Part shown: piece by piece, positions 4,905 to 57,409 of the stretch
Numbering within the stretch: position 1 is the first letter of the stretch
Layout: each line of letters starts with the position of its first letter
Source: Bradymonadales bacterium
Lineage (GTDB): Bacteria > Myxococcota_A > Bradymonadia > JAFGEP01
Length of the DNA stretch: 64,000 bases
Assembly (NCBI GenBank): GCA_016931535.1
Contig: JAFGEP010000096.1
Location: forward strand, 104,091-168,090
Direction of reading: 5' to 3'
Program-made: the position numbers and the translations under genes
Notes under the pieces: generated by a model
The model's database searches: none
The model's input: only the letters and a program-made list of their open reading frames with translations
Told to the model about the DNA's origin: nothing

Positions 4905-5149
4905 AAGCTAGTCATTGGTGTCGAACTGTTCAAGTGCCGCGATGCTGGGTCCCTGCCAGTTGAGTGCGGGAACTTTGTTCCGCCACTTGCACAACGGCAG
5001 AATACACCATACCTTTGTGATTGGGCCAGGGTGATTTGGGCCCGGCGATGCGGTCGCTCGTTTCGCCTCTCCATGGGGTAGGGCGAAGGGCCCCTTCGCG
5101 CGATAACCAGTACGTTTTGTCGAGTGCGAACAAATAGTAGGAGTATCCG

Positions 5150-5473
5150 ATGCCTGCAGCAGGTCGTCTCGCAGATCTAGCCAAAGCGGATCCTCATGCC
5201 CATTGCTGTCCCGCCTGCCCTCATCCCACAGTGGGTCCCTTGATCCTTGGCTCGCCCGATGTGTTCATCAATAACATGCCAGCGGGGCGAAAGACGGATA
5301 TGGGCATCCATGCCGCCTGCTGTGGACCCAACATCTGGATGGCGGACGCCGGAAGCGGCACCGTGTTCATCAACGGGAAGGCCGCCTTCCGCAAGGACGA
5401 TGCCACCAAGCATTGTGGAAGCTTCGCTGGCAAGCTGATCCAGGGCAGCCCCGACGTGATCGTCGGCGATTGA
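5150..5473 (+). CDS. PAAR-domain protein (PAAR_motif/DUF4150-like spike-tip protein)
   Basis: 107 aa with repeated PAAR-type segments: MPAAGR...GSPDVFINNMPAGR...DMGIHAACCGPN...GSGTVFINGKAAFR...HCGSFAGKLIQGSPDVIVG. The paired CC/C metal-site residues are present. Confidence 0.8.
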   Translation: MPAAGRLADLAKADPHAHCCPACPHPTVGPLILGSPDVFINNMPAGRKTDMGIHAACCGPNIWMADAGSGTVFINGKAAFRKDDATKHCGSFAGKLIQGSPDVIVGD

Positions 5474-5720
5474 CCCGCCCGGTCCGATCCCTTTCCCCGA
5501 CCATTCGACCACCCCGCGCAGCGAACGAGGACCGTTGACCAACCAGATCCCGGTCTCTTTCCACCTGCTCCGGTAGCTCCGTCGTTTTTCCCGCCCCTCG
5601 AGGTCCGCCGCTCGGGGCCACTCTGTCCGGTTCGACCCGTTTTCCCTGTTCGAGTGGGCGGACAAGCAGAGCGCTCTCCCCTGCCGCGCCAATCGCGGGG
5701 CAGGCAGTGGATTTTTACCT

Positions 5721-6677
5721 TCACCCCTCCTTGACCGCCAGCCTTCCGTGGAGTCGATAGCGATATCGCACCCGGTGGGTGCGGGCCATCTCCCAGGGGA
5801 TCGAATCGACCCGTTCCAGAGTGCGCAGGCCAAGGCGGTGCAGCAGCGCATCCCACTGGCCGTCCTCGGTGGCCAGCCAATGTTCCGGCTCGACCAGCGA
5901 GCGGCTCCAGCTATCCGGCTGTGCCAGGATCAGGTAGCCGCCCGGTCGGATGAGCGCCACGGCCTGCCCGAGAACCACCCAGGGATCGCGGACGCTGTCC
6001 AGCAGGTTGACGGCCAGCACCAGGTCGAAGGCGGAAGCGGCCAGGGGCGGATGGAGGACATCGGCACAGATCCAGCGCACCCGTCCGGGGGTGGGGCTTA
6101 CCGGGACATCGGCCTGGGTGAGCTCGAACAGCCCTTCCGACCGGAGGCGAGGCCAGACGAGCTGTTGGCTCCGTTGGGCCAGGTTGGCCCAGTAGAGGTT
6201 GGTCGGTTCGTGGTCGAGACCCGTGACGGCGCAGCCGGTCCGGTGGGCGATCTCCAGGGTGAGGCGACCGGGACCGCAACCGAGGTCCACCGCCGTCTGG
6301 GTCGGCTCCGGGATGCGGGGCAGCAACAGGTCGCACAATGCGGTAAACGGCTCGGCTTCTCCTCCGTAGTGGGCGGACAGGTACATGGCGGCGAAGACCG
6401 CACTATCCCAGGTCGGCTCGCCGGGTGTCAGGCTGTTCAGCTCCACCAACCAACGCGCCATGGAAGGGAGATCACGGTTCACGTCGACCTGCAGAATCGA
6501 GTCGACAGACCCCGGCACGATCACCGGAACGCCGTTGGAGAGACGGGGAAACACTCGGCGGCAATCCGGGTTGGAGCAGGTCAGGCTATCCGGGTCGACC
6601 GGCCAGGCCTGGGGTGGCTGGCGGCACAGGGGGCAGATGAGAAGCTCGGAGGGATGAACAGCCATGCACCCTGTCAT
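5721..6677 (-). CDS. Class I SAM-dependent methyltransferase with an N-terminal Trm112-like zinc ribbon
   Basis: CxxC...CxxC ribbon (LICPLCRQ...LTCSNPDCRR) followed by the SAM motif I VDLGCGPGRLT. The start (ATG 6677 or 6665) is uncertain. Confidence 0.7.
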   Translation of the reverse strand: MTGCMAVHPSELLICPLCRQPPQAWPVDPDSLTCSNPDCRRVFPRLSNGVPVIVPGSVDSILQVDVNRDLPSMARWLVELNSLTPGEPTWDSAVFAAMYLSAHYGGEAEPFTALCDLLLPRIPEPTQTAVDLGCGPGRLTLEIAHRTGCAVTGLDHEPTNLYWANLAQRSQQLVWPRLRSEGLFELTQADVPVSPTPGRVRWICADVLHPPLAASAFDLVLAVNLLDSVRDPWVVLGQAVALIRPGGYLILAQPDSWSRSLVEPEHWLATEDGQWDALLHRLGLRTLERVDSIPWEMARTHRVRYRYRLHGRLAVKEG

Positions 6678-36711: not shown

Positions 36712-37335
36712 ATGTCAGCACGCTATAGGCCACCACTGTTGCTGTTTTCCTCGCCGGTGGAGCTGTCCGCCTGCTGCGATGCCCTGAAGGAGAAATGTAG
36801 CCTGCCATTTTCGGCGGAGCGGATCGGGGTTGGCCCCCGCAACGCTCGCCACAGCACGGCCCAGCTCCTGGACACCATCGATCCGCCGAGCCTGGTGTTG
36901 GCGGTGGGAGGGGCGACCTGGCTGTTACCTGGGAAGATCCCCGCTGTTTCGATCTGGGCCCGCGAGATCAAGCGGATCGGACAGGTGACCATCCGGCCCG
37001 AGATCAACCTGAGCTCGCAGTCACTTCAGCAGTTCGCAATGTACTCGGCTCGCCTGGTCACCGTCTCCAGGCCGGTGGTCAACCGCGAGAGCGGGGCCGA
37101 TATCGCCAACGAGGTGGAAGCGGAGATGGCGGACATGGAGTCCCACTCCATCCTCTCCGAATGTGTGCGCCGCGAGGTGTCCTGTGCCGCGATCCGGGCG
37201 GTGGTGAATCGAGCAGGGGAAAACCTGTCCGAACGCTACCGGGAAGCCACCGTGTCCGCGATGAACCTCTTGGGACAATCCCTGGTCGCGATCCTGCGAT
37301 GGCACGACGCCAAAGAGATGCGCCGACTTCGCTGA
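36712..37335 (+). CDS. Phosphorylase-family-1 nucleosidase-like protein (MTA/SAH nucleosidase / futalosine-hydrolase-like)
   Basis: PNP_UDP_1-like layout: PLLLFSSPVELSAC near the N-terminus, VLAVGGATWL (GxAGG-like), C-terminal ADMESHSILSECVRREVSCAAIRAVVNRAGEN. Starts 41 nt after rnpB with an AAAGG RBS. Confidence 0.5.
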   Translation: MSARYRPPLLLFSSPVELSACCDALKEKCSLPFSAERIGVGPRNARHSTAQLLDTIDPPSLVLAVGGATWLLPGKIPAVSIWAREIKRIGQVTIRPEINLSSQSLQQFAMYSARLVTVSRPVVNRESGADIANEVEAEMADMESHSILSECVRREVSCAAIRAVVNRAGENLSERYREATVSAMNLLGQSLVAILRWHDAKEMRRLR

Positions 37336-38363
37336 TGCCGTCCGGGAGCCAGAGAACAGTGACCGACTCGACTCTTTCTGCCTGCTCGGTGGTCATCCCC
37401 ACCTACAACCGCCTCGACCGAGTGTGCCAGGCGGTAACAAGCGTGCTTCTGGGGCGACTGCCAGCCGCCGAGGTCCTGGTGATCGACGACGGAAGCCAGG
37501 ACGGTACCGCCCAGGTGTTGGCCACAAGGGGAGCTCCGGTCCGGGTGATCCGCCTGGAGCGAAATGGGGGGGTGGCCCGAGCCCGGAACCTGGGGATCAG
37601 GCTGGCGGTCCATCCCTGGATCGCGCTTTTGGACTCGGATGACCGCTGGTTGGAGGAGCACCTGGAATGCCTGGTGAAGCACCTGGCCGCCTGCCCCGAC
37701 CGGCGGGTAGTGCAATGTCGAGAGCGCTGGTTTCGGCGCGGAGCTCGCGTGGCAGCCAGGAAGCACCAGCAGCCCAGATCGGGGGATCTGTACCTGCCCT
37801 CCCTCGAGCTTTGCCTGGTCTCCTCCTCGGCCGCGCTGGTCCACAGGGACCTGTTCTTCGAGGTGGGTCTCTACGACGAGCGGCTCCCGGTGTGCGAGGA
37901 CTACGACCTCTGGTTGCGGATGGCCACAAAGACCTCCTTTGGACTGGTCGATCGCGAGACGGTGGTCAAGGACGGTCCCCGAGAGGACCAGCTCTCCCGG
38001 CGCTTCTGGGGGATGGACCGATTTCGGGTCTTTGCCCTGGTCAAGCTGTTGAGCAGCCACCTCCCGGAGCGGTGGGCCCCGCAGACCCGCCAGGTGGCGT
38101 TGCGCAAGCTGGAGGTGCTGGCCGGCGGAGCCGCAAAGCGGGATAACCCACTGGCGGTCAAGGCCTATCACCGGTGGATGGAGGCCATCCGGCAAGGCGA
38201 GGGGGGCTGCCACGGTGATCCGGACGGGAACACGACCCGGCTGCCTGCACTGCTAGAGAACGCGGGGTTCACGTGGGAGGAGCGGGCATCGGATCCGATC
38301 CTCTCGGCACTGCTGGAACCACAACCGGAGCCGGTTTGGTCGGTGGTGGCGGAATCTCGGTGA
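37334..38363 (+). CDS. Family 2 glycosyltransferase
   Basis: GT-A fold motifs SVVIPTYNRLD, VIDDGSQDGT and the DxD LLDSDD. Start overlaps the upstream stop (TGATG). Confidence 0.8.
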
Positions 38364-39370
38364 AGGAGCATCCTGTGCAACATGGCGAACAAAACGGTGG
38401 TCCGACAGGTCGGATTACCTGCCTGCCTTTACATTCGGTCGCCATCGAGGACCAACGCTACCGGATCAGCAAGGGCGGGGCGGCCGACAGCCTGCGGGAG
38501 AGTATCGGGAGATGGGGCTGTCTGACCCCTCCCGTCTGCCACCAGACCGACGGCAGTCTGGTGCCGGTTACCGGCTTCCGGCGGCTTCAGGTTTGCCGGG
38601 AGCTGTTGGGGCCGGAGGGCACGGTCGAGGTGCGGGTGATGGACTCGTCCACCCCTCCGGTCGACCTGCTCTCCCTGGCGGTCTGGGATACCCGGAGGGA
38701 TGGGGCGGTCAATCCGTTTCTGGTGTGCCGGACGGTGCGCCGGGCCCTCGATCTGGGGCTGGAGAGGGAGCTCATCAAGGGGCGTCTCCTGGTCGATCTG
38801 GGGCAAGAGCCCGAGGACTCGGTGATGGACCGGCACCTGAGCCTGGAGCGGATCTGTGGACCTCTGGCCGAGGCGCTGGAGAGCCGTGGAGTCTCCTTGC
38901 GCCGTGCGCTGCGGTGGGTATCCGTGGGTGACAAGGCGGGTGAGCTGCTGGCCTGGCTGGCCGAGTCGTTTCGGCTGAATGGGCGGGCGCTGCAGGAGTG
39001 GGGCGGGATGCTGGACCAGGTGGCGCGACGGGACGGGATGAGCTGGCAACAGGTGGCTGAGAGGGCGGAGCTTGTCGCGCTGGCCACAGAGCAGGATCGC
39101 CAGCTGGACCAGCGGGCACAGGCGGCATTCGGCCGCCTGTGGGCGCTGCGCTACCCGACCTGGCAGGCGGCCAAGGTGGAAGCGGAGCAGCGGGTGAAGC
39201 GGCTGGGATTGCCCGAGCGGGTGGAGGTGAGCTGGGACGAGCGGTTCGAGGAGGAGGGCTTCACCCTGTCGATCGCGGTGCGGCAACCGGAGCAGCTCCA
39301 GGCGGACCTCGAGTCGCTCCTGGAACCGGAGCGCCTGGACCGTATCGCCAAGCTGCTGGAGGCGCTGTAG
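38360..39370 (+). CDS. ParB/sulfiredoxin-like nuclease-domain protein
   Basis: N-terminal ParB-like block SVAIEDQRYRISKGG...LTPPVCHQTDGSLVPVTGFRRLQVCREL (GxRR motif). Alpha-helical C-terminal half. GTG start overlaps the GT2 stop (GTGA). Confidence 0.55.
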   Translation: MKEHPVQHGEQNGGPTGRITCLPLHSVAIEDQRYRISKGGAADSLRESIGRWGCLTPPVCHQTDGSLVPVTGFRRLQVCRELLGPEGTVEVRVMDSSTPPVDLLSLAVWDTRRDGAVNPFLVCRTVRRALDLGLERELIKGRLLVDLGQEPEDSVMDRHLSLERICGPLAEALESRGVSLRRALRWVSVGDKAGELLAWLAESFRLNGRALQEWGGMLDQVARRDGMSWQQVAERAELVALATEQDRQLDQRAQAAFGRLWALRYPTWQAAKVEAEQRVKRLGLPERVEVSWDERFEEEGFTLSIAVRQPEQLQADLESLLEPERLDRIAKLLEAL

Positions 39371-39462
39371 CCGGTCCGGGTACATGGACGGCAAGGACCA
39401 TTGCGGCGAACCGGTCCGGTTATAGGAGAGATCGGCAGCCCGATCAGGAAAGGTAGGTTTCG

Positions 39463-40629
39463 TTGAGCGGTTTCGGCTTCAAGCGGGTCACGATCGAGCG
39501 GGATGTGGCAGAGCTGCCGGTGGCTCGCAGGTGGGCGGACTATGCCCTCCAGCAGCGGTTGGAGCTGGTGTGGGCCGAGCCGCAATCCGCGGCGATCCAC
39601 CAGGGGAAAAGCCTCTACGAGGGGAAGCAGGAGGTGGTGGTATGCCGATCGAAGGGGTCGGCCATCAAGCCCTGTCGAGGTCGGGATACGCGCTGTGTTC
39701 CCTGCAACCTGCACGTGATCAACCAGACCTCCAACTGCCCTTTCAACTGCAGCTACTGCTTCCTCCAGATCTACGTGAACAACCCGGTGACCACAGTCCA
39801 CGCCGATGTGGAGGAGATGATCGACCAGGTCGAGCGCCTGCTGGCCACGCAGCCGGAGCGGCTGTTCCGGGTCACCACCGGGGATCTGGGGGACAGCCTG
39901 GCGCTCGACGAGATCTCGCTGGTCAACCGGGACCTGGTCGAACGCTTTGCCCGGACCTCCAACGGCCTGTTGGAGCTGAAGACCAAGTCCCACCGCGTGG
40001 AACCGCTGCTCGACCTGGATCATCGCGGCCGGACGGTGGTCTCCTGGTCGATGAACACACCGGAGATGATCGCCGCCGAGGAGCACCGATGCGCCAGCCT
40101 GGAAGAGCGGCTGGAGGCGGCCCGGCGGGTGGTGGAGGCGGGGTACCTGGTGGCATTCCATTTCGATCCGATGATCGTGCACGACAGCTGGCAGGAGGGG
40201 TACCCGGCGGTGGCCCGACGGATCTTCGAGACGGTTCCGGCCGGGCGGGTGGCCTGGGTCAGCCTGGGATCCTTTCGTTTCCACCCGCCGTTGCTGGAGC
40301 GGGTGGAACACCGGTTTCCCGGCAGCCGCATCACCCTGGGCGAGCTGACGCTGGCCTCGGACGGCAAGATAAGGTACTTTAAGCCGATTCGAATCGGACT
40401 GTACCAGATCCTCTGGAAGGCCATTCGAGAGGCTGGTGGCCCTGACCCGTTCGTCTACCTGTGCATGGAGCTTCCAGAGCTGTGGCGGCGGGTGGCGGGG
40501 CATGTGCCGGAGCCGGACTACGGGCTGGACTTCGAGTTTGCCTGCAGCCTGGTCCGGCGCTATCCCTGGTTGATGAAGCGGCCGCCTCGACGGGAGGCCT
40601 ACCAGGGGGCCGGTTTGCTGGGTGGTTGA
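39463..40629 (+). CDS. SPL-family (spore-photoproduct-lyase-like, COG1533) radical SAM protein
   Basis: Cx3Cx2C cluster CPFNCSYCFLQ (compare B. subtilis SplB CMGHCHYCYLQ). Probable TTG start at 39463 with a GGAAAGG RBS. Confidence 0.7.
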   Translation: MSGFGFKRVTIERDVAELPVARRWADYALQQRLELVWAEPQSAAIHQGKSLYEGKQEVVVCRSKGSAIKPCRGRDTRCVPCNLHVINQTSNCPFNCSYCFLQIYVNNPVTTVHADVEEMIDQVERLLATQPERLFRVTTGDLGDSLALDEISLVNRDLVERFARTSNGLLELKTKSHRVEPLLDLDHRGRTVVSWSMNTPEMIAAEEHRCASLEERLEAARRVVEAGYLVAFHFDPMIVHDSWQEGYPAVARRIFETVPAGRVAWVSLGSFRFHPPLLERVEHRFPGSRITLGELTLASDGKIRYFKPIRIGLYQILWKAIREAGGPDPFVYLCMELPELWRRVAGHVPEPDYGLDFEFACSLVRRYPWLMKRPPRREAYQGAGLLGG

Positions 40630-40705
40630 GGCGGGGCGCATCCTGGCGATGGGCGCTCTGTGATGGTTGGAGATGGTCAACACAGGAAACGACTAAGAGA
40701 GCAGC

Positions 40706-41242
40706 ATGACTGAGGGACGAGAGCGCAAACGTACATGGCGGGAGATCGATCAGGCCAAGGACAAGAGCTACCACCGGCGTGAGGAGAGACCCGGGACGGT
40801 GCCGGAGAAGGGCAGCCGGTCCAACAAGGCGTACAAGGCGGAGCTGGATCGGTTCTTCAACGCGGGTCAGGCCAGCCTGCGCATCAAGACCCTGATGAAG
40901 GAGACCACCAAGGATCTGCCGCTGACAGCCGAGGAGAGTCCGGAACGGATCAAGCTGGTTCGCAAGGTGCGCAGCGCGGAGACCTTCGACGAGTTCGTGA
41001 CGGCGGTGAACGAGCTGAGGGGCCAGTTCGGATTGCCTCGCGACGTGGACATCCTCTCGCGGGTGCTGGAGCACCCCAACCAACAGGTGGTCCGGGAATC
41101 GCTGAAGCTCCTCAAGGAGCTGGCCAACCGGCTATCGCTTCTCCAGCTTCGTGCGATCGAAGTCCGCCTGGATGCCCTGGAGCTGAGCACCGACGATCCC
41201 GAGACCCTGTCAGACCTGGACGAGCTGCGCAACCTGATCTGA
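40706..41242 (+). CDS. Hypothetical protein with a basic N-terminus, Glu/Leu-rich
   Basis: 178-aa ORF inside the same-strand cluster. No recognisable domain. Confidence 0.45.
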   Translation: MTEGRERKRTWREIDQAKDKSYHRREERPGTVPEKGSRSNKAYKAELDRFFNAGQASLRIKTLMKETTKDLPLTAEESPERIKLVRKVRSAETFDEFVTAVNELRGQFGLPRDVDILSRVLEHPNQQVVRESLKLLKELANRLSLLQLRAIEVRLDALELSTDDPETLSDLDELRNLI

Positions 41243-41358
41243 GCGGGAGCGGGGACCAGGCAGCCGGGCAGTTCGAACCCGATCCCGGCCACCAGCAAGC
41301 GACATCGGATCCGACCCGGCTCGAAAGCAGCCGCCCGCATCGATGGAAAGGAGAGCGA

Positions 41359-42477
41359 GTGAACCAGAAGACGAAGGATGATCGGGAGTCCCGGGCAGCC
41401 CAACCCGGTCGGACCGCCGTATCCGATCTCCGGCCGGGAGAGCGGGTCACGACGACGCTGTTGACTCTGGACAAGCAGGCTCTGGTGACCCGCACGGGAG
41501 CACCCTACCTCAGCCTTCTATTGGGCGACCGCAGCGGGCAGGTGAACGCCAAGGTCTGGGAGAAGGCGGAGTTGTACGAGCAGAGCGTGGACTCGGGAGA
41601 CATCATCCGGGTGGATGCTCACGTGGAGACCTACAAGGGACAGGTACAGCTCCGGGTCGTCCACCTGGAGCGGGCGGCGCTCGATGGGATCGACATCGGC
41701 GAGTTTCTTCCCGCCTCCCGATTTGACCGGGGACAGATGATGTCGGAGCTGAGACAGCTGGTGGCCCGGGAGCTGAACGATCCGGATGTGCGCAGGGTGC
41801 TGCTGGCGGTGCTCGGCAACCAGGAGGTCGCCCAAGGGCTTCTGCGGGCGCCGGCCGCCAAGCTGAACCATCACGCCTACATCGGCGGTCTGTTGGAGCA
41901 CACCCTGAGCATGTGCCGGCTGGCCCAGCAGATCGCTCGCCACTACGCCCGGCAGTACCCCAACCTGCTCGACACCGATCTGCTGGTCGCCGGGGCGGTG
42001 CTTCACGACATCGGCAAGATCTGGGAGCTGTCCAGCGAGCCACACATCGACCTCACCGATGCCGGCCGCCTGCTGGGACACATCCCGTTGGCGGTGGCGC
42101 TGCTCGACCGCGTCTTGAAGAGCCTCGACCTGGAGGACACCGCGCTGGCGCTGCGGCTCAAGCACATGATCTTGAGCCACCACGGGGAGTACGAGTACGG
42201 CGCGGTGGTCCTGCCCCAGACGCCCGAAGCCCAGGTGCTGCACTACCTGGACCAGGTCGATGCCAAGCTGAACATGTTCGCCGATGCCATCGAGCGGACC
42301 GAGGGAAGCTGGTCCGCCTACGTCAAGCCGCTGGGCCATTTCGTCTACGCCGGAAACCGGCCCCAGGGAGATGCCGGCAACCCGGCCGAGGATGGCGCCG
42401 GCGGGGAGGACTCCCGCTCCACCTCCGGGAAGACGCTGGACCTGTTCGCGCCGCCCAAGACAACGGCCGAGGGGTGA
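41359..42477 (+). CDS. OB-fold + HD-domain phosphohydrolase, YhaM-like 3'-5' exonuclease family
   Basis: N-terminal OB-fold (LLTLDKQALVTRTGAPYLSLLLGDRSGQVNAKVWE), then HD motifs LNHHAYIGGLLEHTL...AVLHDIGK...LSHHGE. GTG start. Confidence 0.7.
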   Translation: MNQKTKDDRESRAAQPGRTAVSDLRPGERVTTTLLTLDKQALVTRTGAPYLSLLLGDRSGQVNAKVWEKAELYEQSVDSGDIIRVDAHVETYKGQVQLRVVHLERAALDGIDIGEFLPASRFDRGQMMSELRQLVARELNDPDVRRVLLAVLGNQEVAQGLLRAPAAKLNHHAYIGGLLEHTLSMCRLAQQIARHYARQYPNLLDTDLLVAGAVLHDIGKIWELSSEPHIDLTDAGRLLGHIPLAVALLDRVLKSLDLEDTALALRLKHMILSHHGEYEYGAVVLPQTPEAQVLHYLDQVDAKLNMFADAIERTEGSWSAYVKPLGHFVYAGNRPQGDAGNPAEDGAGGEDSRSTSGKTLDLFAPPKTTAEG

Positions 42478-42514
42478 GGGCACCTTGACGCGGTCCGTTC
42501 CCCCTCGCCCGCGC

Positions 42515-42955
42515 GAGCGTGAGCGCCTGAGCGCCTGAGCGCGAGCGTGAGCGACTGAGCGTGAACGTGAGCGGGACCGCCTGATCGTAAACCTGATCGG
42601 GATCGTGATCGATGTGGGCCCCAGTGGTCGAAGCCCCTGTCCTGCAGCCGCTCGTCGGCTTCGCCTTCCGAGCCCTTCGGGCTCGGGCTCGCGCTGCAGG
42701 GCAGTGTCTTCTCCCTCTGCCGTCGCACCAGGCAACACCCTGCGTGCCCATCGAGCCAGCCGTGAGCGTGAGCGCTTGAGCGCCTGAGCGTGAGCGTGAC
42801 CGTGTACTGGCCAGGGTCGTTCTCGTTCACGTTCAGGTTCACGTCAACGTCAACGTCAACGCCACGATCGTGAACCTGACCCTGATCGTGACCGGCTGAG
42901 CGGGAGCGTGAGCGCCTGACCGAGCGCGATCGCGAACGACTACCAGGCGTGGGGT
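42515..42955. repeat. Degenerate 6-nt-period tandem/inverted repeat array (GAGCGY / CTGAGC / GTGAAC units and their reverse complements)
   Basis: Runs such as gagcgtgagcgcctgagcgcctgagcgcgagcgtgagcgactgagcgtgaacgtgagcg and the inverted cgttcacgttcaggttcacgtcaacgtcaacgtcaac. A GC hairpin ccgagccc-ttc-gggctcgg sits in the centre. Non-coding. Confidence 0.7.
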
Positions 42956-43039
42956 TTCATCATGCCCGCGACCACGACCCGCTGCCGGTTGACACTGGCG
43001 GAGGGGAATGGTAGATGCCCGCTGGATGAAGGGGGGGGT

Positions 43040-43112
43040 GCCAACGTAGCTCAGTCGGCAGAGCAGCGCACTCGTAATGCGCAGGTCCCCGGTTCGAATC
43101 CGGGCGTTGGCT
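43040..43112 (+). tRNA. tRNA-Thr (anticodon CGT)
   Basis: Hand-folded cloverleaf: acceptor GCCAACG/CGTTGGC, D-stem GCTC/GAGC, anticodon stem GCGCA/TGCGC with loop CTCGTAA, T-arm CCCGG-TTCGAAT-CCGGG, discriminator T. 73 nt, no encoded CCA. Confidence 0.9.
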
Positions 43113-43233
43113 TGAACCAAGAAAATTCTCACCCGAATCGCGACGCAATCGCGACACGAATTGCGACATCGCCTGTCGAGTCCTGCTTTTGGTAGGGGAC
43201 GGCTCGAACGGGCGATCCTCCTGCCCTTAGTTT

Positions 43234-48519: not shown

Positions 48520-49239
48520 TCAGGGCGCGGCGGTTTCGGTTGATGCCGGTTCCTGCTCGGCGGGTTGAGCCGCTTCAGGCTGGTCGTCAGCGGGAGGTTC
48601 CTGCTCGGCGGGTTGAGCCGCTTCAGGCTGGTCGTCAGCGGGAGCTGGCTCCTCGGTGGGGGTCGGCTGGGCGGGAGGTTCCTGCTCGGCGGGTTGAGCC
48701 GCTTCAGGCTGGTCGCCAGCGGGAGGTGTCACCGCCGGTTGTTCGGGCAGCGCCTCTTGTGGGGTGTCCGCAGGTTCCGGCTCGACCGGCTCGCCCTCTG
48801 TGGCCGGTGGAATGATCGGGATCTCAGGTTCGGTGGACGGTTCGACTGGAGGTTGTGGTGGTGTGGGGATCTCCAGCTCGAAGGGCTGAGAGGTCGAACC
48901 TTCGAGGTCGATCGGGATTTCTCCGGGCTCTCCGGGGGTTCCCAGGGTTTGTCCGATGGCGCCCGAGACCTCGTTGGGATCGACGTAGCCGCCGCCGACA
49001 CGGCTGGCGGGGTTGCTGGAGATGAAGGCGAGGATGAGGGAGAGCACCATGAACATGAAGGCCGATCCGACCGTGAGCTTGGAGAGGAAGGTGGCTGCGC
49101 CCCGAGCGCCGAAGACGGAGTCGGAGCCGCCTCCTCCGAAGACGGCGCCCATGCCGTCACCTTTCCCCGCTTGCAGGAGGACGACCATGATGAGAAACAG
49201 GCAGTTGAGGACGAACAGTACGTACAGCGCGGCAACCAT
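48520..49239 (-). CDS. secG: Preprotein translocase subunit SecG with a long Pro/Glu-rich tandem-repeat C-terminal extension
   Basis: SecG core MVAALYVLFVLNCLFLIMVVLLQAGKGDGMGAVFGGGGSDSVFGARGAATFLSKLT + second TM. ATG confirmed at 49239. The ~150-aa tail contains three 16-aa (48-nt) repeats of PADDQPEAAQPAEQEP. Confidence 0.8.
   Translation of the reverse strand: MVAALYVLFVLNCLFLIMVVLLQAGKGDGMGAVFGGGGSDSVFGARGAATFLSKLTVGSAFMFMVLSLILAFISSNPASRVGGGYVDPNEVSGAIGQTLGTPGEPGEIPIDLEGSTSQPFELEIPTPPQPPVEPSTEPEIPIIPPATEGEPVEPEPADTPQEALPEQPAVTPPAGDQPEAAQPAEQEPPAQPTPTEEPAPADDQPEAAQPAEQEPPADDQPEAAQPAEQEPASTETAAP
48549..48725. repeat. Three copies of a 48-nt direct repeat, two adjacent and one after a 33-nt spacer, inside the secG 3' region
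   Basis: gttcctgctcggcgggttgagccgcttcaggctggtcgtcagcgggag occurs at 48549, 48597 and 48678. It encodes the repeated PADDQPEAAQPAEQEP motif. Confidence 0.85.
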
Positions 49240-49479
49240 GACCCATGCCCTTCGAGGGTTCGCTTCGCTGCCTTGCCGGACGGCATCCCAGATGGTTTTG
49301 GACGACCGTGGCAGCGGGAGGCGAACTATACCGGCCAAGGTAGAGAGACGCAATTGTTTTATGGGGGGAGTCGGTGGCGCCGGGTGGCGGCAGGACCGAG
49401 GGATCGCCGCCGCTCCACGAGCGCCGGCCATTGGTCGGTGGGTGGTTTGAGATGCCGGGGGGTGATGGGGTACAGAGGG

Positions 49480-56290: not shown

Positions 56291-56448
56291 AGATCGGCTC
56301 GCGGATGCCTTGGCGCCAAGGCTAGATTGTCGTCTGCTCGAGGCTCGGGATCAAGAGGTGTTCATTTCCGCTCGCAACGGCCACCGGCTCGCTCACCCTT
56401 ACCCTCCCGCTCCCGCTCCCCATCAGGAACATCGTTTGCATCGCAGGC

Positions 56449-57390
56449 TCAGAAGCGGACCACTTCGATGGTTTCCCGGAGCGATTTTTGGGGACGGTAG
56501 TTGAGAACCTCGCGGGCTCGGCGGTCGTCCACCATGCAGACATACTTGAGGAAATCGAGCTCGGCGGGGGTCAGCGCGCTGACCCGGAGATTCCAGAGGA
56601 GCTTGACGAGGGGTTTGGCGATCAGCTCGGGAATGGGGATCTTGGTTCGGCCGAGCTGTTTGTGAAGCACGGAGAGGGCGATGGCGCCTGGCCCGGCGAT
56701 GTTGAAGACGCCTCGGACACCGGGTTTCAGGCTGAGCACGATGGCTTCGATGAGGTCTTCGACGTGGATGACCTGCATCATGGGATCGAAGCCCAGGATG
56801 GTGGGCGGGTTCTTGAGACGCAGGTAGTTGGAGGGGGCGTTGCTGAGGTGTCCGAGGATGTTGACCGGCCGGAGGATGACCGTGTCGATCTCCGGATGCC
56901 GCCAGAAGAAGGAGTTGGTATAGATGTCGACCTCGATCAGGTCGCGGATGCCGGAGAAGGTGGAGGCGCCCAGCAGGGGGGCTTCCTCGTTGAGGAACTG
57001 GTTGTTGTTGGGGCTAGCGCCGTAGACGTTGGCGCTGGAGAGGAGGACGAACTTGGGGACATTGTGCTTGGCGCAGTAGTCGAGCAGCTTGTGGGTGCCG
57101 ACCACGTTGAAGGAGTGATGCTCTTCGGCGTCCTTGCGGAGGTCGTGGACGATGTTGAGGTGGATCACCGCGCCGATGCCCCCTTTACGGAAGATGTCCT
57201 CGCAGGCTTTGCGCCGGATATCCATCTGGTAGACGGTGACGTTTTTGGGGAGGTAGCGGGATCCGCGGCGATCGATGCCGATGATCTCGTACTCCTTGTG
57301 CAGCCTGCGGGCAAGCAGGCGACCCATGCGGCCGCTGATTCCGGTGATCACGAGCTTCTGCTTGGCAGGGGGACGGCGCCTTGGTTTCAT
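56449..57390 (-). CDS. NAD-dependent epimerase/dehydratase-family (SDR) protein
   Basis: N-terminal VITGISGRMG (GxxGxxG), YxxxK region and Rossmann fold. Confidence 0.7.
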   Translation of the reverse strand: MKPRRRPPAKQKLVITGISGRMGRLLARRLHKEYEIIGIDRRGSRYLPKNVTVYQMDIRRKACEDIFRKGGIGAVIHLNIVHDLRKDAEEHHSFNVVGTHKLLDYCAKHNVPKFVLLSSANVYGASPNNNQFLNEEAPLLGASTFSGIRDLIEVDIYTNSFFWRHPEIDTVILRPVNILGHLSNAPSNYLRLKNPPTILGFDPMMQVIHVEDLIEAIVLSLKPGVRGVFNIAGPGAIALSVLHKQLGRTKIPIPELIAKPLVKLLWNLRVSALTPAELDFLKYVCMVDDRRAREVLNYRPQKSLRETIEVVRF

Positions 57391-57409
57391 GGTGAGCCTC
57401 ACCAACAGT

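Follow-up and report, generated by a model that had tools for sequence, protein, structure and literature searches.

How does a junction between two genes come to hold several hundred nucleotides of repetitive DNA, and does that DNA serve a purpose of its own? The question is raised by a Bradymonadales bacterium in which a spacer of 562 nt, extending from the stop codon of a YhaM-like gene (42477) to tRNA-Thr(CGT) at 43040, is the site of a repeat array. Positions given here refer to the window, that is, the whole 64-kb stretch of DNA that was analyzed. On the basis of the repeat structure and its absence in relatives, we assign the array to the class of compound degenerate minisatellites, as a lineage-specific piece of cryptically simple DNA, and we give this reading a probability of about 0.6. 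Most likely, the array has no dedicated sequence-specific function.

The gene preceding the array (41359–42477, + strand) is complete and encodes a YhaM-like 3'-5' exoribonuclease with an OB fold and an HD domain (Pfam HD and tRNA_anti-codon); its product matches the NCBIfam YhaM model at E = 8e-64, which is under the family cut-off. The C-terminal TLDLF motif of this protein is common to the relatives and the protein ends a few residues later, and the shared motif indicates that the gene is not truncated. The first repeat unit appears approximately 35 nt 3' of the stop codon. On the other side, the tRNA-Thr gene (43040–43112, + strand) is preceded by a promoter, TTGACA-17 nt-TAGATG (42979–43007, + strand), which was located from the sequence and from an alignment with relatives (alignment A1) in which the pattern GTTGACA-17-TAnAT is common to the window and three relatives. 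This promoter was missed by a strict consensus scan because its -10 element ends in G. The right end of the array lies approximately 40 nt before the -35 element, and the promoter, which is kept in the relatives, delimits the inserted segment on its right side. The gene 3' of tRNA-Thr encodes a Ser/Thr kinase, and the sole terminator-like site returned by a terminator scan (43210–43226) is also 3' of the tRNA.

The first-pass annotation placed hexamer-phased repeats before tRNA-Thr, and motif counts, lag self-identity and Tandem Repeats Finder all detected them there. Over 42510–42940, self-identity at a lag of 6 nt reached z = 10.4 relative to dinucleotide shuffles, with additional peaks at lags of 12, 20 and 26 nt; Tandem Repeats Finder reported periods of 6, 8, 20 and 26 nt. 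When the whole 64-kb window was scanned with a sliding frame, the two arms of the array ranked first and second for short-lag score. The motif GAGCGYGAGCG is present in six copies in the window (expected, 0.32), all of them on the + strand and all inside 42515–42914, and TGAGCGYSTGAGCG with at most one mismatch also occurs six times, against 0.18 expected.

Anchoring the units on a GANC core yielded 32 sense-strand units, and 27 of the 33 spacings between successive cores measure either 6 nt (19 spacings) or 8 nt (8 spacings). The logo of the unit is C-[G/C]-T-G-A-N-C-G: outside the GA-C anchor, C is found at -3 in 29 of 32 units, T at -1 in 23 and G at +4 in 30, and the N position is free. 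Nearly all units share one orientation, which is the sense strand of both flanking genes. Variant units (GAGC, GATC and GTCAAC types) run together, with 15 adjacent pairs of the same type (permutation p = 0.02 versus random order). A clustering of GATC (Dam-type) sites was considered and dropped: seven sites in 446 nt, compared with 9.75 per kb window-wide, amount to only an approximately 1.6-fold excess, and this slight excess is due to GATC being part of the repeat units themselves.

The array had been described as a 450-nt tract; the repeats are real but not continuous, because two periodic arms flank an aperiodic core of 147 nt. The left arm, L (42512–42612, + strand), contains 14 GANC-core units spaced 6, 8 or 12 nt, in which a GAGCG-type run is followed by a GATCG-type run and a higher-order periodicity is apparent at 20 and 26 nt. 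The core (42613–42759, + strand) is unique and non-periodic, without a significant lag in self-identity. The right arm begins with block R1 (42760–42806, + strand), whose six GAGCG-type units directly repeat the opening part of L. Next comes block R2 (42815–42862, - strand), composed of approximately eight inverted units, GTTCNC/GTTCNN and then three of GTCAAC, and complementary both to the end of L and to the beginning of the block that follows. In that block, R3 (42863–42940, + strand), GATCG/GAACC/GACC-type units give way to GAGCG-type ones, 12 in all, and the block directly repeats modules of L and R1.

The layout of two arms around a central hairpin, as first proposed, is correct, but formal alignment showed that palindromic symmetry is limited and that the arms are mostly direct repeats of each other. 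Direct alignments between blocks gave 38/42 identical positions for L and R1, 38/42 for L and R3 and 35/41 for R1 and R3, the direct module copies thus being 85–90% identical. R2 is the sole inverted block (22/26 versus L and 21/26 versus R3), and with the direct partner that adjoins it, it makes up a quasi-palindrome. The outer ends of the array (42512–42553 and 42893–42934) are direct copies and not inverted ones.

The hairpin quoted in the first-pass annotation, with its 8-bp ccgagccc/gggctcgg stem at 42668–42686, is present in the core. The predicted apical hairpin has 9 bp (42667–42675 paired with 42679–42687) and a UUC loop, and it is nested in a GC-rich stem-loop (42617–42724) that includes a 12-bp stem (42637–42648/42693–42704). 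Folded as RNA, the core stem-loop has a z-score of -2.89, and one of 200 shuffles folds as well. A second, local hairpin is predicted across R2 and R3, where a perfect 10-bp stem of CAGGTTCACG and CGTGAACCTG encloses a (GTCAAC)3 loop; its stability is unexceptional (RNA z = -1.78, DNA z = -0.95). For the whole spacer, the + strand fold is marginal at z = -1.95, with 3 of 100 shuffles as good, and the - strand has z = -0.70. The core stem-loop is itself stable, but there is no U-tract 3' of it in the sequence and the terminator scan was empty across the region; terminators lacking a U-tract have been reported in high-GC bacteria.

The view that the region is non-coding and that the ORFs called there are artefacts of the repeats was borne out by the broken frames, by the lack of Pfam matches for the ORFs called in the array and by the failure to find any homologue, among 5.8 billion proteins, of the product of a representative minus-strand ORF, a search that doubled as a proxy test for related elements. 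TGA occurs on the + strand in 23 of 32 units, and these TGA units together with the alternation of 6 and 8 nt close all forward frames and leave the reverse strand stop-free, which explains the long minus-strand ORF calls made by gene callers. Rfam returned nothing relevant to the array at gathering or at permissive (E ≤ 10) thresholds: the match of lowest E-value below gathering was a eukaryotic miRNA model (E = 0.0036) at less than a third of the gathering score, and the others had E ≥ 0.09. The HD proteins of the relatives have long Pro/Glu/Ala-rich tails with a 6-nt periodicity at the DNA level. The array as a decayed C-terminal linker of the HD protein was ruled out, since the conserved TLDLF precedes the stop codon here, and reading the three frames by eye revealed no second LDLF-coding relic after the array.

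An indel among related genomes, as had been envisaged in the first-pass annotation, is evident at this junction. Family-level relatives keep the same gene order (PNP_UDP_1, GT2, an ORF labelled ParB-like, an SPL radical-SAM gene, a gene for a 178-aa protein and the YhaM-like gene), and in most of them tRNA-Thr(CGT) follows directly 3' of the YhaM-like gene. Between the stop codon of the HD gene and tRNA-Thr there are 562 nt here, compared with 74, 114, 183 and 21 nt in four relatives (loci L082, L087, L090 and L094, respectively). Because the relatives have the same gene order and the same promoter but short spacers, the array plus its core is a lineage-specific insertion of approximately 430–480 nt upstream of a conserved tRNA-Thr promoter. 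No closer relatives were found in the collections queried: the next-best matches to the HD protein are at most 59% identical, and those from a GTDB protein-pattern scan are at most 41% identical. Within the spacers of the relatives, no copy-number variation was seen between samples, the contigs being identical.

Two of the relatives carry repeats of their own at this junction. In L090, a short run of related hexamers (GCTCGY) in the opposite orientation abuts the -35 element of the same tRNA promoter. In L084, the tRNA is gone from the junction, and a different repeat with 20–66-nt units and GCGCCGAAGGCGC hairpins is found at the same gene end.

Arrays resembling this one exist elsewhere, as does a smaller one in the window. 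A small array built from units of this class lies in an intergenic spacer at 56380–56425 on the - strand, approximately 25 nt after the stop codon of another gene. In a Holophagae contig (L015), GTGAGC/GTCAGC units directly follow a yhaM-like stop codon and are succeeded by a perfect (AGCTGAG)17 array. In one phage group, a mixed 6/7/8-nt GTGAGC/GTAGGC array comes after a terminator hairpin and varies in length between related contigs in a VNTR-like manner; an annotated phage relative of these arrays was searched for and not found. Mixed 6/7/8-nt arrays with a GTGAGC core are seen independently in unrelated metagenome and phage contigs, and several of the look-alike arrays begin right at a stop codon (TGA or TAA), their units containing stops. 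Enrichment of tandem repeats 3' of yhaM-like genes was not significant (2 of 80 HD-gene 3' flanks versus 2 of 323 other 3' flanks with a score ≥ 0.55; Mann-Whitney p = 0.085).

How such an array could have been built is suggested by its internal structure. The 6-nt periodicity with 8-nt variants and the super-periods of 20 and 26 nt point to duplication at the level of both units and blocks, and the clustering of same-type units in runs argues for local copying rather than for independent sites. Together, the variant runs, the block copies of 85–90% identity, the inverted neighbor and the absence in relatives lead us to infer slippage, block duplication and template switching as the origin. 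In this scheme, a short G/C-rich unit with the consensus CGTGANCG, in 6- and 8-nt versions, would have been amplified by replication slippage; multi-unit blocks of approximately 26–45 nt would then have been duplicated; and one block, R2, would have been copied in the inverted orientation through intrastrand template switching, leaving arms that surround a GC-rich, hairpin-forming core. The product may have been tolerated because it occupies the only permissive place in the locus, between the YhaM-like stop codon and a self-sufficient tRNA-Thr promoter. In most prokaryotic phyla, hexanucleotide repeats show enrichment, and strand slippage is the main route by which short tandem repeats change (PMC12699852). 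We speculate that, if the array is read through from the upstream gene, the core and R2/R3 hairpins could incidentally act as a 3'-end barrier or as an insulator between the mRNA and the tRNA unit; a terminator or insulator effect of this kind could exist.

Among known kinds of DNA, the array is best filed as a further instance of intergenic minisatellites or cryptically simple DNA. With bacterial intergenic minisatellites and VNTRs it shares short head-to-tail units, strong periodicity, clustered variants, block super-repeats, an intergenic location and lineage specificity, and the look-alike GTGAGC arrays vary in length between related contigs, polymorphism in copy number being the hallmark of slippage arrays. 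It differs from typical members of this class in its mixed 6- and 8-nt units, its inverted block and its unique 147-nt hairpin core. The array also failed a CRISPR test, as its units are contiguous and 6–8 nt long and are not 25–40-nt repeats with unique spacers. Certain features argue against a minisatellite. In bacteria, deletion bias usually removes neutral DNA, and by that measure a degenerate repeat of approximately 430 nt is long; the near-uniform orientation of the units and a core hairpin significantly more stable than its shuffles also tell against it; and selection for a recognition motif could give the same pattern of near-invariant unit positions with a free N. The near-invariant flanks, the near-uniform orientation and the persistence of 430 nt together leave the functional readings a small remaining probability.

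The most viable of these readings, which we regard as unlikely, is that the 3' UTR of the YhaM-like mRNA contains a functional RNA element. The core hairpin together with long-range pairing between the arms would then stop transcription or protect the message from 3'-5' exonucleolytic decay; alternatively, the phased GAG/GAN triplets would offer an oligomeric RNA-binding protein a platform of many sites. Such an element is consistent with the placement of almost all units on the sense strand of the upstream gene, with the better folding of the + strand than of the - strand, with the stability of the core hairpin, and with the position of the only terminator-like site 3' of the tRNA, so that nothing else parts the gene from the tRNA promoter. 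The missing U-tract and the lack of any relevant Rfam match even at the permissive threshold argue against it, as do the marginal z-score of the whole region and the lack of a known candidate binding protein; moreover, the relatives do without such an element, the tRNA of L094 starting only 21 nt after the stop codon. The RNA targets of TRAP in Bacillus, which consist of (G/U)AG triplets with 2–3-nt spacers and are bound by a protein of the Bacillus group, offer a comparison: the array resembles them in its sense-strand GAG/GAN triplets at regular short spacing, 14 of which lie in the left arm, but its spacers are 3 or 5 nt and there is no attenuator context.

Decidedly unlikely, in our judgment, is a protein-binding array at the DNA level, in which a small cooperative repressor or partition-type protein would occupy the units, making the array a regulatory or insulating region for tRNA-Thr or a centromere-like site. 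Contiguous 6–8-bp units in both orientations upstream of a promoter, with near-invariant flanking positions and one free position, are what such a site might look like, and the short run in L090 abuts the -35 element of the same promoter. Ribbon-helix-helix proteins bind arrays of this general form (the omega heptads of pSM19035, the tetramer boxes of ParG and the metboxes of MetJ), with 2–10 units beside the gene for the binding protein. The likeness lies in contiguous 4–8-bp units, direct and inverted, next to a promoter; the array described here differs from them in having approximately 40 units and no identified candidate gene for a binding protein, and in being absent in relatives. The 32 direct and 8 inverted units far exceed known operator arrays, the array ends approximately 40 nt short of the -35 element, none of the ORFs read near the array was noted as a partition ATPase or small repressor gene, and the order of the units resembles a copying history and not a set of designed sites.

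ParB had been suggested as the protein that might bind these repeats, and this proposal was not supported. The 16-bp parS palindrome TGTTNCACGTGAAACA has no match with up to three mismatches, and the resemblance to parS is limited to the general idea of repeated sites and to GTTCACG in the array, which resembles part of a parS half-site. The neighboring ParB-like ORF (38273–39367) gave no ParB domain hit and no Pfam, NCBIfam or PDB-sequence match, and its full-length homologues in L133 and L134 (35–39% identity) occur in relatives that have no array.

A broader form of the functional readings is that the array is a selected cis-element, a phased landing pad of approximately 40 CGTGANCG sites for an oligomerizing nucleic-acid-binding protein, with the core hairpin as the point of nucleation or as a boundary; we find this more doubtful still. 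If it were true, the array would act either as DNA upstream of the tRNA-Thr promoter or as RNA in the 3' UTR of the exoribonuclease mRNA, and the presence of GAGC-type arrays 3' of yhaM-like genes, as in the Holophagae contig L015, would not be coincidental.

Very improbable is the idea that this genome carries a dispersed mobile element, of REP-, BIME- or MITE-like type, of which the array is one copy. In its favor, the array is inserted relative to the relatives and contains hairpins and inverted segments, and a contig from an independent assembly of this organism ends within it, a common outcome at repeats. Similar to REP, BIME and REPIN sequences, the array is GC-rich and extragenic, follows a stop codon and combines hairpins with short direct and inverted modules. 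However, REPs are imperfect palindromes of approximately 20–40 nt with tens to hundreds of dispersed copies, whereas the unit here is a non-palindromic 6–8-mer. No second copy was found in the window, the 64 kb of this genome that the search covered, or elsewhere among the collections searched, and the suggestion of a REP-like element is accordingly not supported, though a low copy number may exist in the rest of the genome. A blastn search (word size 9) of the region against the 64-kb window and approximately 130 fetched loci recovered, apart from simple-repeat look-alikes, only the independent Logan assembly of this organism, and blastn against PLSDB plasmids and INPHARED phages gave zero matches to the array region. 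An exact 30-mer of the core was absent from JGI metagenomes, a repeat-pattern search of viral and metagenome collections yielded nothing but unrelated microsatellites of the (GTGAGCGC)n and (GTGAGCGT)n types, and no spurious-ORF product resembling that of the array was found. A test for MITE features showed no terminal inverted repeats, the outer ends being direct, and no target-site duplication was seen at the array ends.

We give the same very small weight to the array being wholly or partly an artefact of assembly. The source is a short-read MAG, in which repeats and GC-rich hairpins are error-prone, and the contig of the independent Logan assembly ends at the base of the apical hairpin (42670). 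Up to that point, however, the Logan contig is identical base for base over 42478–42670, an interval that takes in the left arm and the first part of the core. On both sides of the array synteny with the relatives is kept, the HD gene preceding tRNA-Thr, so that the join is not chimeric, and every periodic block is shorter than a typical read.

The first-pass annotation had also proposed a recombination or integration scar, which holds in the generic sense of an origin by recombination or slippage, the origin favored here, but not in the integrase sense. The least credible reading of all is a scar of integrase-mediated integration or excision at tRNA-Thr with remnant att arm sites: in one relative (L095/L096) an inverted tRNA-Thr fragment lies next to a phage-integrase gene, so that tRNA-Thr(CGT) does serve as an integration site, and arm-type sites consist of short repeats, direct and inverted, on either side of a core, but that integration is at the tRNA 3' end whereas the insertion here is on the other side, 5' of the promoter, no integrase and no duplicated tRNA segment accompany it (the 3' 25-mer of the tRNA occurs once in the window, and the gene 3' of the tRNA is the kinase gene), and 40 units far exceed the number of arm sites in known systems.

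Taken as a compound degenerate minisatellite, the array has been inserted into a gene-to-tRNA junction that is conserved in other respects, and its biological weight is small as it stands; it accounts for several spurious ORF calls and for one assembly break. It would be of interest in its own right only if the near-invariant unit positions are under selection, that is, if a protein or RNA partner exists. What has been found in the Bradymonadales, a predatory lineage that has received little study, is an unusually long and internally structured stretch of cryptically simple DNA, and the locus could become a VNTR marker for strain typing if close relatives are sequenced.

The conserved Bradymonadia gene cluster of the window (36712-42477), which is also present in the relatives L133 and L134, runs in the order PNP_UDP_1-like protein, GT2 glycosyltransferase, uncharacterised protein of ~330-365 aa, SPL-type radical-SAM enzyme, 178-aa protein and YhaM-like nuclease. 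Profile searches of the ~330-365-aa protein, which the first-pass annotation had called ParB-like, returned no match. The nuclease carries a low-complexity tail of variable length (about 35 to about 200 aa), at whose end the T(L/I)DLF motif is invariant.

Repeats of several kinds occur elsewhere in the window. A small array of the main array's unit class lies on the minus strand at 56380-56425 (units GGGAGC GGGAGC GGGAGG GTAAGG GTGAGC GAGCC), in sense orientation; it follows the minus-strand gene 56449-57405, whose stop codon is ~25 nt away and has the context CTGAGCC. A perfect 48-nt tandem duplication (48548-48660; 2.0-2.3 copies) is a coding repeat, since it falls inside the minus-strand ORF 48520-49431, in the Pro/Glu/Ala-rich C-terminal part of the product. 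Directly 3' of tRNA-Thr, the 11-nt unit AATCGCGAC[A/G]C is present in three tandem copies (43134-43168); its motif ATCGCGA also occurs at the end of the main array (42928-42936), so that the tRNA together with its promoter is bracketed by the motif, an arrangement that may be due to chance.

Look-alike arrays were found in a phage group represented by the IMG/VR and JGI contigs L099, L110, L113, L115, L120, L123, L124, L129 and L131 (for example, L110:4990-5125), which share a module in which a mixed 6/7/8-nt GTGAGC/GTAGGC array comes after a terminator hairpin (GCCCCTCACCCTCACGGGTGGGGGGCTTTT). From contig to contig this module varies in length between about 120 nt and >300 nt, and it recurs within a contig; a search for annotated phage relatives of this group found none. 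In the metagenome contigs L119, L121/L132 and L126, a TGA or TAA stop codon marks the exact start of microsatellite arrays whose units themselves contain stops, such as (GCGGGTGA)n and (GAGAGTAA/GAGAGTGA)n, a pattern suggestive of slippage arrays that have the stop codon as their anchor and would leave the protein unaltered.

A repeat stretch also follows the yhaM-like gene of a Holophagae MAG (JASFPU010000266.1; L015:4941-5152), where the stop codon is succeeded immediately by TGAGCG GTGAGC CGTCAGC TGTCAGC CATCAGC GGTCAGC and next, near the contig end, by a perfect (AGCTGAG)x17 array. Across 80 HD-gene 3' flanks compared with 323 other 3' flanks, repeats were not significantly enriched after yhaM-like genes.

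Among the relatives, L084 (JGI 3300073308) has no tRNA after the HD gene and instead carries a 270-nt repeat region (L084:5396-5672) of three 53-nt units and three 20-nt units, each of the latter forming a hairpin of the GCGCC-GAAG-GCGC type; its sequence is not related to the main array. In L095, the HD gene is followed straight away by an inverted 3' fragment of tRNA-Thr(CGT) and an adjoining phage-integrase gene (L095:4330-4385 and 4988-5962), and L096 is arranged likewise. Given this integrase-linked fragment, tRNA-Thr serves this lineage as an integration site.
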